Made by a program: the position numbers and the translations under genes. The notes under the pieces were generated by a model. It worked only from the letters and a program-made list of their open reading frames with translations, made no database searches and was not told the origin of the DNA. 64,000 nucleotides of DNA. Origin: Escherichia coli. Lineage in GTDB: Bacteria; Pseudomonadota; Gammaproteobacteria; Enterobacterales; Enterobacteriaceae. The DNA lies in the NCBI RefSeq assembly GCF_003018235.1, contig NZ_CP027437.1. One strand, given 5' to 3'. Positions 7,331-46,726 of this stretch are shown here, in pieces; within the stretch, counting starts at the first letter, position 1; every line of letters starts with the position of its first letter.

Positions 7331-8702
<1,372 letters not shown>

Positions 8703-39515: not shown

Positions 39516-40847
39516 TTATGAACGGCCTTTTGCCAGATATTGCTCCATCTCTTCTTCCGGCACCATTCCACCTCCCGTCGCCCACACCAGATGAGTGGCA
39601 TTACGCAGTTGTTCTGCGCTGAAACCGTGCATCTGTTGGTAACTTACTGATGCGCACACGCGCTGAGGCCCGGCCATACCCGCCAGTGCCGAAGGTTCAA
39701 GACGAATACCTTCTTCCTGCGCCAGCCAGCCAAGCATGTCATACATGGTTTGATCGCTAAGGGTATAGAAGCCATCCAGTAGACGCTCCATTGCCCGCCC
39801 GACAAAGCCTGATGCGCGACCAACTGCAAGGCCATCCGCTGCGGTAAGGTTGTCGATACCAATATCCTGAACAGAAATCTGATCGTGTAATCCTGTATGG
39901 ACGCCTAACAGCATACAAGGGGAGTGCGTTGGTTCGGCAAAAAAGCAGTGAACATGATCGCCAAATGCCAGTTTAAGCCCGAATGCGACGCCACCAGGAC
40001 CACCGCCAACACCACACGGCAGATAGACAAACAGAGGGTTATCAGCATCGACAATACGACCTTGCTCGGCAAATTGCGCTTTAAGACGCTGGCCTGCGAC
40101 GGAATACCCAAGGAACAACGTGCGGGAATTCTCGTCATCAATAAAGAAACAGTTCGGGTCAGACTGCGCTACTTTACGTCCTTCCTCGACTGCAACACCA
40201 TAATCTTGCTCATATTCCACGACCGTAACGCCATGGCTGCGCAGTTTCGCTTTTTTCCATGCCCGGGCATCAGCAGACATATGTACTGTCACCTTAAAGC
40301 CAATGCGGGCGCTCATAATGCCGATTGATAACCCCAGATTTCCGGTTGAGCCCACAGCAATGCTGTATTGACTAAAGAACTGTTTAAACTCCGGAGAAAG
40401 CAGTTTGCTGTAGTCATCTTCAAGCGTCAGCAACCCCGCTTCCAGAGCCAGTTTTTCTGCATGTGCCAGGACTTCATAAATCCCGCCGCGTGCTTTTATG
40501 GAGCCGGAAATGGGCAAATGGCTATCTTTTTTCAGTAGCAGTTGCCTGCTGATCGGTTGTTGATATTCCTTTTCCAGCCGTTTTTGCATAGCCGGAATGG
40601 CAACCAGTTCTGATTCAATAATCCCCCCAGTAGCAGCAGTTTCAGGAAATGCTTTTGCCAGATAGGGTGCAAAACGGGATAAGCGCGCATGGGCGTCCTG
40701 AACATCCTGTTCGGTCAGGCCAACATAAGGTAAACCTTCAGCCAATGAGGTCGTGCCAGGATTAAACCAGGTGGTTTCTTTAAGAGCAACCAGATCCTTT
40801 ACCAACGGATACTGGGCGATGAGCGAGTTCATTTTAGCGTTTTCCAT
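39516..40847 (-). CDS. dsdA: D-serine ammonia-lyase (PLP-dependent), about 442 aa
   Basis: ORF track; [19 protein letters not shown] recalled as DsdA. Confidence 0.9.
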
Positions 40848-40864
40848 AGTACGTCTCTTTGCGC

Positions 40865-41095
40865 TTAGATGATAAATGACAGCAGGAATGTGCCCGCCAG
40901 AGCGACGACTGAAGCGATAAATGTCGCGGTCGTATAGTATTTAAATGTTTCATTGAGCGTAGCGCCGCAATATTGCTTCACCAGCCAGAAAAGCGAGTCC
41001 GTAACGATCGTGCAGCCAATCGCACCTGAACCGATAGCAATCGCAATAATTTCCGGGCTGATGTCGGGATACAGCGGCAGCACAATGATCCATAT
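40865..41095 (-). pseudogene. dsdX: 3' remnant of the D-serine permease gene (about 72 C-terminal codons); the rest was replaced by the csc island
   Basis: minus-strand frame ...IVLPLYPDISPEIIAIAIGSGAIGCTIV...SFII matches the DsdX C-terminus; in-frame stop just upstream; no dsdC present. Confidence 0.7.
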
Positions 41096-41325: not shown

Positions 41326-42321
41326 ATGGCTTCATTAAAGGATGTCGCACGCCTGGCGGGAGTGTCGATGATGACAGTCTCCCGGGTGATGCATAATGCA
41401 GAATCTGTGCGTCCTGCAACGCGTGACCGCGTATTGCAGGCAATCCAGACCCTGAATTATGTTCCTGATCTTTCCGCCCGTAAGATGCGCGCTCAAGGAC
41501 GTAAGCCGTCGACTCTCGCCGTGCTGGCGCAGGACACTGCTACCACTCCTTTCTCTGTTGATATTCTGCTTGCCATTGAGCAAACCGCCAGCGAGTTCGG
41601 CTGGAATAGTTTTTTAATCAATATTTTTTCTGAAGATGACGCTGCCCGTGCTGCTCGTCAGCTGCTTGCCCACCGTCCGGATGGCATTATCTATACTACA
41701 ATGGGGCTGCGACATATCACGCTGCCTGAGTCTCTGTATGGTGAAAATATTGTATTGGCGAACTGTGTGGCGGATGACCCAGCGTTACCCAGTTATATCC
41801 CTGATGATTACACTGCACAATATGAATCAACACAGCATTTGCTCGCGGCGGGCTATCGTCAACCGTTATGCTTCTGGCTACCGGAAAGTGCGTTGGCAAC
41901 AGGGTATCGTCGGCAGGGATTTGAGCAGGCCTGGCGTGATGCTGGACGAGATCTGGCTGAGGTGAAACAATTTCACATGGCAACAGGTGATGATCACTAC
42001 ACCGATCTCGCAAGTTTACTCAATGCCCACTTCAAATCTGGCAAACCAGATTTTGATGTTCTGATATGTGGTAACGATCGCGCAGCCTTTGTCGCTTATC
42101 AGGTTCTCCTGGCGAAGGGGGTACGTATCCCGCAGGATGTCGCCGTAATGGGCTTTGATAATCTGGTTGGCGTCGGGCATCTGTTTTTACCGCCGCTGAC
42201 CACAATTCAGCTTCCACATGACATTATCGGGCGGGAAGCTGCATTGCATATTATTGAAGATCGTGAAGGGGGAAGAGTGACGCGGATCCCTTGCCCGCTG
42301 TTGATCCGTTGTTCCACCTGA
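41326..42321 (+). CDS. cscR: LacI-family sucrose operon repressor, 331 aa (ORF extends to 41128)
   Basis: ORF track; N-terminal LacI-type HTH MASLKDVARLAGVSMMTVSRV; csc context. Confidence 0.85.
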   Translation: MASLKDVARLAGVSMMTVSRVMHNAESVRPATRDRVLQAIQTLNYVPDLSARKMRAQGRKPSTLAVLAQDTATTPFSVDILLAIEQTASEFGWNSFLINIFSEDDAARAARQLLAHRPDGIIYTTMGLRHITLPESLYGENIVLANCVADDPALPSYIPDDYTAQYESTQHLLAAGYRQPLCFWLPESALATGYRRQGFEQAWRDAGRDLAEVKQFHMATGDDHYTDLASLLNAHFKSGKPDFDVLICGNDRAAFVAYQVLLAKGVRIPQDVAVMGFDNLVGVGHLFLPPLTTIQLPHDIIGREAALHIIEDREGGRVTRIPCPLLIRCST

Positions 42322-42328
42322 TATTATG

Positions 42329-43762
42329 TTAACCCAGTTGCCAGAGTGCTCCATGTTGCAGCACAGCCACTCCGTGGGAGGCATAGAGCGACAGTTCCCG
42401 TTCTTCTGGCTGCGGATATATTCGGCTACTCATCACCGCCTCCCCGTCGTTAATAAATACTTCCACGGATGATGTATCGATAAATATCCTTAGGGCGAGC
42501 ATGTCACCCTGCGGGAGGGGAATACTACGGTAGCCATCTAAATTCTCGTGTGGGTAATACCGCCACAAAACAAGTCGCTCAGATTGGTTATCAATATACA
42601 GCCGCATTCCAGTGCCGAGCTGTAATCCGTAATGTTCGGCATCACTGTTCTTCAGCGCCCACTGCAACTGAATCTCAACTGCTTGCGCGTTTTCCTGCAA
42701 AACATATTTATTGCTGATTGTGCGGGGAGAGATAGATTGATGCTGCTGGCGTAACGACTCAGCTTCGTGTACCGGGCGTTGTAGAAGTTTGCCATTGCTC
42801 TCTGATAGCTCGCGCGCCAGCGTCATGCAGCCTGCCCAGCCTTCACGTTTTGAGGGCATTGGCGATTCCCACATATCCATCCAGCCGATAACAATACGCC
42901 GACCATCCTTCGCTAAAAAGCTTTGTGGTGCATAAAAGTCATGCCCGTTATCAAGTTCAGTAAAATGCCCGGATTGTGCAAAAAGTCGTCCTGGCGACCA
43001 CATTCCGGGTATTACGCCACTTTGAAAGCGATTTCGGTAACTGTATCCCTCGGCATTCATTCCCTGCGGGGAAAACATCAGATAATGCTGATCGCCAAGG
43101 CTGAAAAAGTCCGGACATTCCCACATATAGCTTTCACCCGCATCAGCGTGGGCCAGTACGCGATCGAAGGTCCATTCACGCAATGAACTGCCGCGATAAA
43201 GCAGGATCTGCCCCGTGTTGCCTGGATCTTTCGCCCCGACAACCATCCACCATGTGTCGGCTTCACGCCACACTTTAGGATCGCGGAAGTGCATGATTCC
43301 TTCTGGTGGAGTGAGGATCACACCCTGTTTCTCGAAATGAATACCATCCCGACTGGTAGCCAGACATTGTACTTCGCGAATTGCATCGTCATTACCTGCA
43401 CCATCGAGCCAGACGTGTCCGGTGTAGATAAGTGAGAGGACACCATTGTCATCGACAGCACTACCTGAAAAACACCCGTCTTTGTCATTCTCGTCTCCTG
43501 GCGCTAGCGCAATAGGCTCATGCTGCCAGTGGATCATATCGTCGCTGGTGGCATGTCCCCAGTGCATTGGCCCCCAGTGTTCGCTCATCGGGTGATGTTG
43601 ATAAAACGCGTGATAACGATCGTTAAACCAGATCAGGCCGTTTGGATCGTTCATCCACCCGGCAGGAGGCGCGAGGTGAAAATGGGGATAGAAAGTGTTA
43701 CCTCGGCGCTCGTGAAGTTTTGCTAGTGCGTTTTGCGCCGCATGTAATCGAGATTGCGTCAT
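42329..43762 (-). CDS. cscA: sucrose-6-phosphate hydrolase / invertase (GH32), 477 aa
   Basis: ORF track; GH32 WMNDPNG motif; recalled CscA. Confidence 0.85.
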   Translation of the reverse strand: MTQSRLHAAQNALAKLHERRGNTFYPHFHLAPPAGWMNDPNGLIWFNDRYHAFYQHHPMSEHWGPMHWGHATSDDMIHWQHEPIALAPGDENDKDGCFSGSAVDDNGVLSLIYTGHVWLDGAGNDDAIREVQCLATSRDGIHFEKQGVILTPPEGIMHFRDPKVWREADTWWMVVGAKDPGNTGQILLYRGSSLREWTFDRVLAHADAGESYMWECPDFFSLGDQHYLMFSPQGMNAEGYSYRNRFQSGVIPGMWSPGRLFAQSGHFTELDNGHDFYAPQSFLAKDGRRIVIGWMDMWESPMPSKREGWAGCMTLARELSESNGKLLQRPVHEAESLRQQHQSISPRTISNKYVLQENAQAVEIQLQWALKNSDAEHYGLQLGTGMRLYIDNQSERLVLWRYYPHENLDGYRSIPLPQGDMLALRIFIDTSSVEVFINDGEAVMSSRIYPQPEERELSLYASHGVAVLQHGALWQLG

Positions 43763-43796
43763 TTTTATCATCCTGGTTAAGCAAATTTGGTGAATT

Positions 43797-43808
43797 GTTA
43801 ACGTTAAC
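43797..43808. promoter_or_regulatory. perfect palindrome GTTAACGTTAAC, candidate CscR operator 1 in the cscA–cscK divergent region
   Basis: 12-bp perfect palindrome read directly. Confidence 0.5.
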
Positions 43809-43860
43809 TTTTATAAAAATAAAGTCCCTTACTTTCATAAATGCGATGAATATCACAAAT

Positions 43861-43872
43861 GTTAACGTTAAC
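43861..43872. promoter_or_regulatory. second perfect palindrome GTTAACGTTAAC, candidate CscR operator 2, nested in a larger TCACAAA...TTTGTGA inverted repeat
   Basis: identical 12-mer 64 bp from the first copy. Confidence 0.5.
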
Positions 43873-43977
43873 TATGACGTTTTGTGATCGAATATGCATG
43901 TTTTAGTAAATCCATGACGATTTTGCGAAAAAGAGGTTTATCACTATGCGTAAGTCAGATGAATTTAAGGGAAAAAA

Positions 43978-44901
43978 ATGTCAGCCAAAGTATGGGTTTT
44001 AGGGGATGCGGTCGTAGATCTCTTGCCAGAATCAGACGGGCGGCTACTGCCTTGTCCTGGCGGTGCGCCAGCTAACGTTGCGGTGGGAATCGCCAGATTA
44101 GGCGGAATAAGTGGGTTTATAGGTCGGGTGGGGGATGATCCTTTTGGTGCGTTAATGCAAAGAACGCTGCTAACTGAGGGAGTCGATATCACGTATCTGA
44201 AGCAAGATGAATGGCACCGGACATCCACGGTGCTTGTCGATCTGAACGATCAAGGGGAACGTTCATTTACGTTTATGGTCCGCCCCAGTGCCGATCTTTT
44301 TTTAGAGACGACAGACTTGCCCTGCTGGCGACATGGCGAATGGTTACATCTCTGTTCAATTGCGTTGTCTGCCGAGCCTTCGCGTTCCAGCGCATTTACT
44401 GCGATGACGGCGATCCGGCATGCCGGAGGTTTTGTCAGCTTCGATCCCAATATTCGTGAAGATCTATGGCAAGACGAGCATTTGCTCCGCTTGTGTTTGC
44501 GGCAGGCGCTACAACTGGCGGATGTCGTCAAGCTCTCGGAAGAAGAATGGCGACTTATCAGTGGAAAAACACAGAACGATCGGGATATATGCGCCCTGGC
44601 AAAAGAGTATGAGATCGCCATGCTGTTGGTGACTAAAGGTGCAGAAGGGGTGGTGGTCTGTTATCGAGGACAAGTCCACCATTTTGCTGGAATGTCTGTG
44701 AATTGTGTCGATAGCACTGGGGCGGGAGATGCGTTCGTTGCCGGGTTACTCACAGGTCTGTCCTCTACGGGATTATCTACAGATGAGAGAGAAATGCGAC
44801 GAATTATCGATCTCGCTCAACGTTGCGGAGCGCTTGCAGTAACAGCGAAAGGGGCAATGACAGCGCTGCCATGTCGACAAGAACTGGAAAGTGAGAAGTA
44901 A
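43978..44901 (+). CDS. cscK: fructokinase (PfkB family), 307 aa
   Basis: ORF track; ribokinase/PfkB-like; csc context. Confidence 0.85.
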   Translation: MSAKVWVLGDAVVDLLPESDGRLLPCPGGAPANVAVGIARLGGISGFIGRVGDDPFGALMQRTLLTEGVDITYLKQDEWHRTSTVLVDLNDQGERSFTFMVRPSADLFLETTDLPCWRHGEWLHLCSIALSAEPSRSSAFTAMTAIRHAGGFVSFDPNIREDLWQDEHLLRLCLRQALQLADVVKLSEEEWRLISGKTQNDRDICALAKEYEIAMLLVTKGAEGVVVCYRGQVHHFAGMSVNCVDSTGAGDAFVAGLLTGLSSTGLSTDEREMRRIIDLAQRCGALAVTAKGAMTALPCRQELESEK

Positions 44902-44962: not shown

Positions 44963-46210
44963 ATGGCACTGAATATTCCATTCAGAAATGCATACTATCG
45001 TTTTGCATCCAGTTACTCATTTCTCTTTTTTATTTCCTGGTCGCTGTGGTGGTCGTTATACGCTATTTGGCTGAAAGGACATCTAGGATTAACAGGGACG
45101 GAATTAGGTACACTTTATTCGGTCAACCAGTTTACCAGCATTCTATTTATGATGTTCTACGGCATCGTTCAGGATAAACTCGGTCTGAAGAAACCGCTCA
45201 TCTGGTGTATGAGTTTCATTCTGGTCTTGACCGGACCGTTTATGATTTACGTTTATGAACCGTTACTGCAAAGCAATTTTTCTGTAGGTCTAATTCTGGG
45301 GGCGCTCTTTTTTGGCCTGGGGTATCTGGCGGGATGTGGTTTGCTTGACAGCTTCACTGAAAAAATGGCGCGAAATTTTCATTTCGAATATGGAACAGCG
45401 CGCGCCTGGGGATCTTTTGGCTATGCTATTGGCGCGTTCTTTGCCGGCATATTTTTTAGTATCAGTCCCCATATCAACTTCTGGTTGGTCTCGCTATTTG
45501 GCGCTGTATTTATGATGATCAACATGCGTTTTAAAGATAAGGGTCACCAGTGTGTAGCGGTGGATGCAGGAGGGGTAAAAAAAGAGGATTTTATCGCAGT
45601 TTTCAAGGATCGAAACTTCTGGGTTTTCGTCATATTTATTGTGGGGACGTGGTCTTTCTATAACATTTTTGATCAACAACTCTTTCCTGTCTTTTATGCA
45701 GGTTTATTCGAATCACACGATGTAGGAACGCGCCTGTATGGTTATCTCAACTCATTCCAGGTGGTACTCGAAGCGCTGTGCATGGCGATTATTCCTTTCT
45801 TTGTGAATCGGGTAGGGCCAAAAAATGCATTACTTATCGGTGTTGTGATTATGGCGTTGCGTATCCTTTCCTGCGCGCTGTTCGTTAACCCCTGGATTAT
45901 TTCATTAGTGAAGCTGTTACATGCCATTGAGGTTCCACTTTGTGTCATATCCGTCTTCAAATACAGCGTGGCAAACTTTGATAAACGCCTGTCGTCGACG
46001 ATCTTTCTGATTGGTTTTCAAATTGCCAGTTCGCTTGGGATTGTGCTGCTTTCAACGCCGACTGGGATACTCTTTGACCACGCAGGCTACCAGACAGTTT
46101 TCTTCGCAATTTCGGGTATTGTCTGCCTGATGTTGCTATTTGGCATTTTCTTCCTGAGTAAAAAACGCGAGCAAATAGTTATGGAAACGCCTGTACCTTC
46201 AGCAATATAG
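44963..46210 (+). CDS. cscB: sucrose:H+ symporter (LacY-like MFS), 415 aa
   Basis: ORF track; oligosaccharide:H+ symporter family; csc context. Confidence 0.85.
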   Translation: MALNIPFRNAYYRFASSYSFLFFISWSLWWSLYAIWLKGHLGLTGTELGTLYSVNQFTSILFMMFYGIVQDKLGLKKPLIWCMSFILVLTGPFMIYVYEPLLQSNFSVGLILGALFFGLGYLAGCGLLDSFTEKMARNFHFEYGTARAWGSFGYAIGAFFAGIFFSISPHINFWLVSLFGAVFMMINMRFKDKGHQCVAVDAGGVKKEDFIAVFKDRNFWVFVIFIVGTWSFYNIFDQQLFPVFYAGLFESHDVGTRLYGYLNSFQVVLEALCMAIIPFFVNRVGPKNALLIGVVIMALRILSCALFVNPWIISLVKLLHAIEVPLCVISVFKYSVANFDKRLSSTIFLIGFQIASSLGIVLLSTPTGILFDHAGYQTVFFAISGIVCLMLLFGIFFLSKKREQIVMETPVPSAI

Positions 46211-46651: not shown

Positions 46652-46726
46652 TGGTGTCCCCTGCAGGAATCGAACCTGCAATTAGCCCTTAGGAGGGGCT
46701 CGTTATATCCATTTAACTAAGAGGAC
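46652..46726 (-). tRNA. argW: tRNA-Arg(CCU), 75 nt
   Basis: reverse complement GTCCTCTTAGTTAAATGGATATAACGAGCCCCTCCTAAGGGCTAATTGCAGGTTCGATTCCTGCAGGGGACACCA. Confidence 0.9.

Follow-up and report, generated by a model that had tools for sequence, protein, structure and literature searches.

The csc regulon underlies the growth on sucrose of Escherichia coli W and of many B1, D and E strains, and it is a standard target of strain engineering, in which cells are freed from their need for high sucrose concentrations by deleting cscR or mutating an operator. Its control region has been described for E. coli EC3132/W (Jahreis 2002, J Bacteriol 184:5307; Sabri 2013, AEM 79:478) and is, to the extent that those descriptions are quoted in later papers, the same object as the one analyzed here. 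As related in PMC11251922, Jahreis et al. (2002) identified the two 12-bp inverted repeats of this region as putative CscR operators, and a mutation in one of the two raises csc expression, that is, derepresses the genes. In the layout quoted there, the repeats flank the -35 and -10 elements of cscA, with the downstream repeat lying over the start site and a Crp site adjoining the -35. The same source reports the repeats to be conserved in the loci of Citrobacter and Kluyvera, and it gives the conservation as extending to five species (PMC11251922). A spontaneous mutation of the "cscKB operator binding site" (mutant Tn69) has been re-isolated and is associated with growth on low sucrose, and sucrose use is abolished by a cyaA insertion (PMC3938415); that paper also cites two cAMP-CRP sites for the bidirectional csc promoter. 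CscR acts as a repressor, in that cscR deletions derepress csc (PMC3938415, PMC12465659), and the cscB, cscK and cscA transcripts fall below 10% after an anaerobic shift, even in a cscR deletion strain (PMC12465659). Our literature search found no in vitro assay of DNA binding by E. coli CscR, and a full-text search for GTTAACGTTAAC returned only unrelated cloning primers.

A similar layout is described for ScrR, a LacI-family sucrose repressor, at scrY of pUR400, where the -35 and -10 elements sit between two short inverted repeats; the downstream repeat covers the start site, and upstream there is a CRP site (Cowan 1991; Jahreis and Lengeler 1993, both as quoted in PMC11251922). In the published description, ScrR differs from CscR in belonging to another orthologous group, the fructose-responsive ScrR/FruR branch, and in its association with PTS-type sucrose utilization. 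The scrY repeats, as summarized in PMC11251922, are 14 bp long and of another sequence, and the CRP site is poorly conserved there.

The twin palindromes of the csc locus

The window, that is, the whole 64-kb stretch of DNA that was analyzed, belongs to the E. coli chromosome and carries the cscA/cscK intergenic region at 43763-43977 (215 bp, 30% GC). The 401 bases around the site were compared with 5,426 complete E. coli genomes, and 2,660 of these contain a match (95-100% identity), always on the chromosome. To the left lies cscA (42329-43762, minus strand), which encodes a GH32 sucrose hydrolase (invertase) of 477 aa (NCBIfam TIGR01322, 478 bits; RefSeq annotation); its RefSeq start has an AGGA Shine-Dalgarno sequence 8 nt upstream, and the mechanical open reading frame start at 43771 is three codons too long. 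To the right, on the plus strand, follow the fructokinase gene cscK (43978-44901; NCBIfam NF006957, 507 bits) and cscB, the gene of a LacY-type sucrose/H+ symporter (44963-46210; NCBIfam TIGR00882, 590 bits). Convergent with cscA, and 1.5 kb from the palindromes, is cscR (41326-42321, plus strand), whose product of 331 aa is a LacI-family repressor with the domains PF00356 (residues 3-48; 1.2e-21) and PF00532, Peripla_BP_1 (residues 61-329; 9.4e-94). The csc genes are flanked by a truncated dsdX remnant together with dsdA (39516-41083 in all; dsdA itself at 39516-40847, minus strand) and by argW, the gene of tRNA-Arg(CCT), at 46652-46726; in the matching RefSeq record, prophage-type genes (DUF4942, torI) come next. 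The position is that of the known argW/dsd recombination hotspot.

The original prediction had placed two identical perfect 12-bp palindromes, 64 bp apart, between the divergent cscA and cscKB transcription units, and this description proved exact. Copies of GTTAACGTTAAC are found at 43797-43808 and 43861-43872, in both cases as an unstranded exact match inside the 215-bp intergenic region, and nowhere else in the window. We refer to these copies, as putative CscR operator cores, as O1 (cscA-proximal), whose center is 40.5 bp upstream of the cscA ATG, and O2 (cscK-proximal), whose center is 111.5 bp upstream of the cscK ATG. They are 64 bp apart from start to start, with 52 bp in between. The sequence is its own reverse complement and can equally be described as the HpaI hexamer GTTAAC duplicated in tandem. 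The identity of O1 and O2 reaches one base further on each side, giving the 14-nt sequence TGTTAACGTTAACT, and a repeat search reports a direct repeat of 17 nt (94%) spanning the two.

A single perfect 12-bp palindrome is unremarkable here. The window holds 17 of them, about the number predicted by uniform composition, and at least one is present in 12% of dinucleotide shuffles of the cscA/cscK intergenic region. The same perfect 12-bp palindrome is found twice without overlap in only one of 100,000 shuffles. A role of the palindromes as RNA or DNA hairpins was rejected, because a 12-nt palindrome cannot make a stable hairpin. Two further symmetries were seen nearby. Another perfect 12-bp palindrome, TAACGATCGTTA, lies inside the cscA coding sequence (43614-43625); it has no central CG, occurs as a single copy and fits the chance rate of 17 per 64 kb. 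A 14-nt inverted repeat, 86% complementary, joins TCCCTTACTTTCAT (43825-43838, in the cscA promoter spacer) to ATGAATTTAAGGGA (43959-43972, in the cscK ribosome-binding region), and it may be due to chance.

The two sites carry the hallmarks of LacI-family operators. Among 1303 LacI-family motifs, 1251 are even palindromes and 1173 have a central CG; for more than 75% of LacI-family sites, the distance to the start codon downstream is 30-140 bp, and multiple sites are present in about 20% of operons (PMC4052901). O1 and O2 are even-length palindromes with CG at the dyad (GTTAAC|GTTAAC), both lie inside the 30-140 bp range, and a LacI-family regulator with an HTH_LacI domain and a periplasmic-binding-protein core, CscR, is encoded at the locus. 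The conserved core is only 12 bp long, and in other genera the flanks extend it weakly toward AATGTTAACGTTAACATT. Within the cscA/cscK intergenic region, the RefSeq record annotates no regulatory feature. Further operators were looked for upstream of cscR, where one might have indicated autoregulation, in the cscK-cscB gap and past the end of cscB, and none was found: the closest sequences in these places have 4-5 mismatches.

Site pairs beside CscR homologues

We used CscR as a query against one genome per species and obtained 74 loci with homologues of 48-96% identity in about 20 genera, which belong to Enterobacterales, Orbaceae and Aeromonas. In the 1.18 Mb of sequence around these 74 homologues, exact copies of GTTAACGTTAAC number 75, against 0.086 expected, and one-mismatch copies number 80, against 3.0 expected; nearly all adjoin sucrose genes. 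O1 is kept with at most one mismatch beside CscR homologues in about 20 genera, and the helix-turn-helix is the best-conserved part of the homologous regulators. Distant LacI relatives (25-27% identity) are accompanied by another core, GTTAGCGCTAAC. Such co-occurrence of motif and regulator is what comparative genomics typically shows for a regulator and the site that it recognizes. The twin occurrence of the palindrome is non-random, and chance is excluded because of the shuffle result and the excess of exact copies beside CscR homologues taken together. The reading of the palindromes as candidate CscR operators, as originally predicted, is supported both by the published genetics and by the comparative evidence; it is correct but already known, having been in the literature since 2002.

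A check of conservation in other csc loci had been proposed with the original prediction, and it gave 58 site pairs among the 74 loci, distributed over two gene arrangements. The spacing is 64 bp in 37 pairs, 63 bp in 6 and 62 bp in 2, so that 45 of the 58 pairs fall at 62-64 bp; the others are spaced 68-69 bp (9 pairs, Proteus) or 57 bp (4 pairs, Gilliamella). In an alignment of 21 sequences (A1), invariant columns are found only in O1, O2 and two CRP blocks, and the spacer is essentially unconstrained; O2 corresponds to columns 95-106, all invariant or nearly so. Six Escherichia sequences have invariant operators, and their differences are densest between O1 and the first CRP box (CRP box 1, described below).

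In the first arrangement, which is that of E. coli, the site pair lies between the GH32 gene and the kinase gene. In the second, it lies upstream of an operon of a LacY-like permease, a GH32 enzyme and a RafY-like porin, with the regulator gene divergent (loci L028, L030-L059, L070, L073 and L074; for example L051:3606-8996). This arrangement is seen in Klebsiella, Enterobacter, Raoultella, Serratia, Kosakonia, Erwinia, Yersinia and Aeromonas, where the CscR homologues have 51-58% identity, and the intergenic region contains the same O1-CRP-O2-CRP module with a spacing of 63-64 bp. The gene-proximal operator is consistently imperfect in these loci (GGTAAC or GATAAC). The 74-locus survey, the fixed spacing of 62-64 bp and a fixed 3-nt gap between O2 and the adjacent CRP box go beyond what has been published, and so do the second gene arrangement with the same module and the explanation of the outer repeat as CRP half-sites that is given in the following section.

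Several lineages depart from this scheme in other ways. The pairs of Proteus (L019-L027, L069), 68-69 bp apart, have two imperfect sites, GTTAACGATAAC and GTTAACGTTATC, and most Providencia loci (L012-L017, L064) have a single exact site. In Gilliamella and other Orbaceae (L029, L033, L034, L037, L038, L048, L066, L071; positions around 7700-7850), extra sites lie between the permease and regulator genes, 14-20 bp from start to start (e.g., TTTAACGTTAACATGTTAATGTTAAC); between their invertase and kinase genes, the same loci also have the 57-bp pair together with a perfect CRP box. Among the distant relatives, those of Lachnospiraceae (L075, L077, L078, L079) have paired palindromes of the GTTAGCGCTAAC type about 30-230 bp upstream of their own regulator genes, a core that is akin to the csc operator but different from it.

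CRP boxes and promoters around the operators

O2 had been described in the original prediction as nested in a larger TCACAAA…TTTGTGA inverted repeat. This repeat exists and is slightly longer than stated, with arms of 8 nt that are 100% complementary (ATCACAAA at 43852-43859 and TTTGTGAT at 43881-43888), but the nesting is only positional: the axis of the outer repeat is at 43870 and that of O2 at 43866.5, so the two are 3.5 bp apart rather than concentric, and one dimer therefore cannot use both symmetries. An extended operator built on the outer repeat was rejected on this offset and on the finding that the arms belong to conserved CRP boxes. The arms are the inner half-sites of two predicted CRP boxes that flank O2. 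CRP box 1, TGCGATGAATATCACA (43842-43857, unstranded; center 43849.5), matches 9 of 10 positions of TGTGA-N6-TCACA, and its right half is the TCACAAA arm; sites with at most one mismatch to this consensus number 5 in the 64-kb window, against 2.0 expected. CRP box 2, TGTGATCGAATATGCA (43883-43898, unstranded; center 43890.5), matches 7 of 10 positions, with a strong left half, which is the TTTGTGA arm, and a weak right half. The two centers are 41 bp apart, and the number of boxes fits the literature, in which two CRP sites are described (as cited in PMC3938415).

The placement of both boxes relative to O2 is conserved. Among the 45 pairs with a spacing of 62-64 bp, CRP box 1 matches at least 7 of 10 positions at a fixed offset in 43 and CRP box 2 does so in 40, compared to 0.29% of random positions in each case. 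Wherever a pair spaced 62-64 bp has CRP box 1, this box is separated from O2 by 3 nt (4 nt in Gilliamella, with its 57-bp pairs), and the gap between O2 and CRP box 2 is 10 nt; the stretch from O1 to CRP box 1 accounts for all length variation. The cross-species consensus of CRP box 2 is TGTGATCGAGATCACA: the TG of its TGTGA is invariant in the 21 aligned sequences and the rest largely conserved, and the whole TGTGA is invariant in the 12 type-A loci. Between the operators of the Proteus pairs (68-69 bp) and the Tatumella pairs (62-63 bp; L006, L062), no recognizable CRP box was found.

The promoters themselves are less clear-cut. As read from the sequence, candidate -10 elements of cscA on the minus strand are TATAAA (43815-43810) and TATTTT (43821-43816), which together occupy 43810-43821; the former would place the cscA start near 43803, the latter near 43808, which would make CRP box 1 a class II site at -41.5. 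A third candidate, AACAAT (43794-43799), overlaps O1; it would put the start near 43788 and CRP box 1 in a class I position (-61.5). Depending on the candidate, CRP box 1 would thus be centered at about -41.5, -46.5 or -61.5. A generic scan of 43700-44050 for sigma-70 promoters and terminators gave no hits, which is no surprise for promoters that depend on an activator. In a cross-species -10 profile, no -10 was conserved at class II distance, and TATAAA and TATTTT are not conserved across genera. The sole positionally conserved -10-like hexamer (46 loci) is AACAAT in E. coli and TACCAT in permease-type loci; it begins 49.5-50.5 bp from the center of CRP box 1, as in class I (-61.5) geometry, and it overlaps the gene-proximal half of O1, so that its conservation is confounded by that of the operator. 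The class I geometry is at odds with the promoter layout quoted from Jahreis 2002 in PMC11251922. In all three candidate geometries, O1 would overlap either the cscA start site or the -10.

Mode of repression and comparison with known systems

We propose that O1 and O2 are CscR operators, of which O1 acts by occluding RNA polymerase and O2 by interfering with activation by CRP, and we hold this model as a whole to be about 90% probable. Read on the cscA-coding strand, the control module would consist of CRP box 2, O2, CRP box 1, the core promoter, O1 and cscA, with cscKB transcribed in the opposite direction from beyond CRP box 2. CscR would bind with one dimer per operator, and the hinge helices, as in the LacI family, would read the central CpG. 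On O1, CscR probably blocks RNA polymerase at cscA directly, because this operator overlaps the start site or the -10 in every plausible geometry. On O2, it would most plausibly interfere with the activation of both promoters by cAMP-CRP, cooperate with O1, or do both, because O2 is upstream of either core promoter and wedged between the CRP boxes. A sucrose-derived inducer would free CscR from its operators, after which cAMP-CRP would activate transcription. Repression by CscR, the operator-constitutive mutation and cAMP dependence are taken from the literature (PMC3938415, and PMC11251922 as far as it quotes the original work), and the sequence, the genes, the conservation and the fixed geometry were observed here; the roles given to protein surfaces, the exact start sites and the way in which O2 represses are what we infer. 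The weakness of CRP box 2 in E. coli (7/10) counts against the model, and the part that is coupled to CRP is not universal, because the Proteus and Tatumella pairs have no recognizable CRP box between the operators.

How the two sites work together can be pictured in more than one way. In one of these, possible though doubtful, CscR dimers at O1 and O2 act mainly together and associate, so that the DNA over the cscA promoter forms a 64-bp loop, which the bend introduced by CRP would favor, in the pattern of lac O3-CAP-O1 or gal OE-OI; looping between the palindromes had already been suggested in the original prediction. The center-to-center distance of 64 bp corresponds to 6.1 turns at 10.5 bp per turn, and the spacing is held at 62-64 bp (5.9-6.1 turns) in 45 of the 58 pairs despite the free divergence of the spacer; moreover, a CRP box lies inside the putative loop, and O1 and O2 are equally perfect. 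However, a loop of 64 bp is very short, and the fixed spacing is equally explained if each operator is pinned to a promoter element. The pairs of Gilliamella (57 bp or 5.4 turns, 4 pairs) and of Proteus (68-69 bp or 6.5-6.6 turns, 9 pairs) are half a turn out of phase. In addition, the PF00532 core extends to residue 329 of the 331 residues of CscR, which leaves the protein without the C-terminal tetramerization helix of LacI, although CscR may achieve bridging of the GalR type without such a tail.

An unlikely alternative to such a loop is that CscR at O2 acts in the manner of CytR, displacing or contacting the two CRP dimers, 41 bp apart, and turning both promoters off. CytR operators are weak, their half-sites are variably spaced, and CRP is needed for CytR to bind; O2, by contrast, is a perfect and invariant palindrome, which should bind its repressor unaided. 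What speaks for anti-activation are the fixed distances of 3 nt and 10 nt between O2 and the CRP boxes, with offsets kept in 43/45 and 40/45 pairs, and the position of O2 upstream of the core promoters in all cscA geometries and in the cscK geometry deduced from CRP box 2. As O2 is upstream of either core promoter, simple occlusion of the polymerase by this site is unlikely. The best NCBIfam match of CscR is to CytR, but at 138 bits it is far below the cut-off of 436 and reflects only general LacI-family similarity. The operator mutation assigned to cscKB, which derepresses (PMC3938415), also speaks for anti-activation.

Finally, the palindromes could be read by another regulator (Cra/FruR, ArcA or a LacI paralogue). 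The GTTAA half-site resembles part of the ArcA half-site, but ArcA direct repeats have a spacing of 11 bp instead of 6 bp, and the half-site of Cra, TGAAWC, departs from the csc half-site at the three outer positions; Cra and ArcA were rejected as binders on half-site sequence and spacing and on the co-variation of the motif with the CscR homologue. Even with the more than 10-fold anaerobic decrease of csc transcripts in a cscR deletion strain (PMC12465659) in its favor, another regulator, or a functionless duplicated HpaI-site repeat, is extremely improbable: the motif tracks the CscR homologue over two gene arrangements and about 20 genera, the distant LacI relatives have a different core, the published operator mutation derepresses csc (as quoted in PMC11251922), and chance is excluded by the shuffles and the copy excess.

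Returning to CscR as the repressor, one may speculate, at odds that we consider low, that the csc control region is a rigid and widely transferred cassette in which the O2-bound dimer fits tightly between two CRP dimers. Such a cassette may serve the anti-activation of both divergent promoters or an unusually short, CRP-bent 64-bp loop with O1. If this were true, the 3-nt gap and the spacing of 62-64 bp in 45 loci of about 20 genera would reflect protein-protein geometry rather than the independent placement of sites. The findings are ordinary in that they leave the current understanding of csc regulation unchanged. Their use is practical: knowledge of which bases belong to the operators and which to the CRP boxes is useful for designing derepressed or catabolite-insensitive promoters, the clean 12-bp core provides a motif for regulon prediction, and the recognition of an O1-promoter-CRP-O2-CRP module at sucrose or fructan loci of many Enterobacterales, Orbaceae and Aeromonas is modestly useful.

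Compared with other LacI-family systems, the csc region shares with gal OE/OI and with lac O3-CAP-O1 two operators that bracket a CRP-activated promoter, and in each case one operator adjoins the CRP site on its upstream side; with CRP box 1 at -41.5, O2 would be at about -58.5, compared to -60.5 for gal OE. Looping of the gal operators, which are separated by 113 bp, requires HU, and a tetramer joins the lac operators over a distance of 92 bp; the csc operators differ in being 64 bp apart and in having a repressor without the tetramerization tail. With the CytR-CRP complexes of deoP2, cdd and udp, csc shares a LacI-family repressor site that has a CRP site on either side. The sites of CytR are degenerate and dependent on CRP, with CRP sites about 52-53 bp apart, whereas O2 of csc is a perfect palindrome and its CRP boxes are 41 bp apart. 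Finally, RafR and the ScrR of Burkholderiales resemble CscR as local LacI-family sugar regulators with obligatory paired sites (PMC4052901). Their pairs are 21-22 bp apart, which indicates adjacent cooperative dimers (PMC4052901), whereas the two sites of the csc pair are separated by 64 bp, with a promoter and a CRP site between them.
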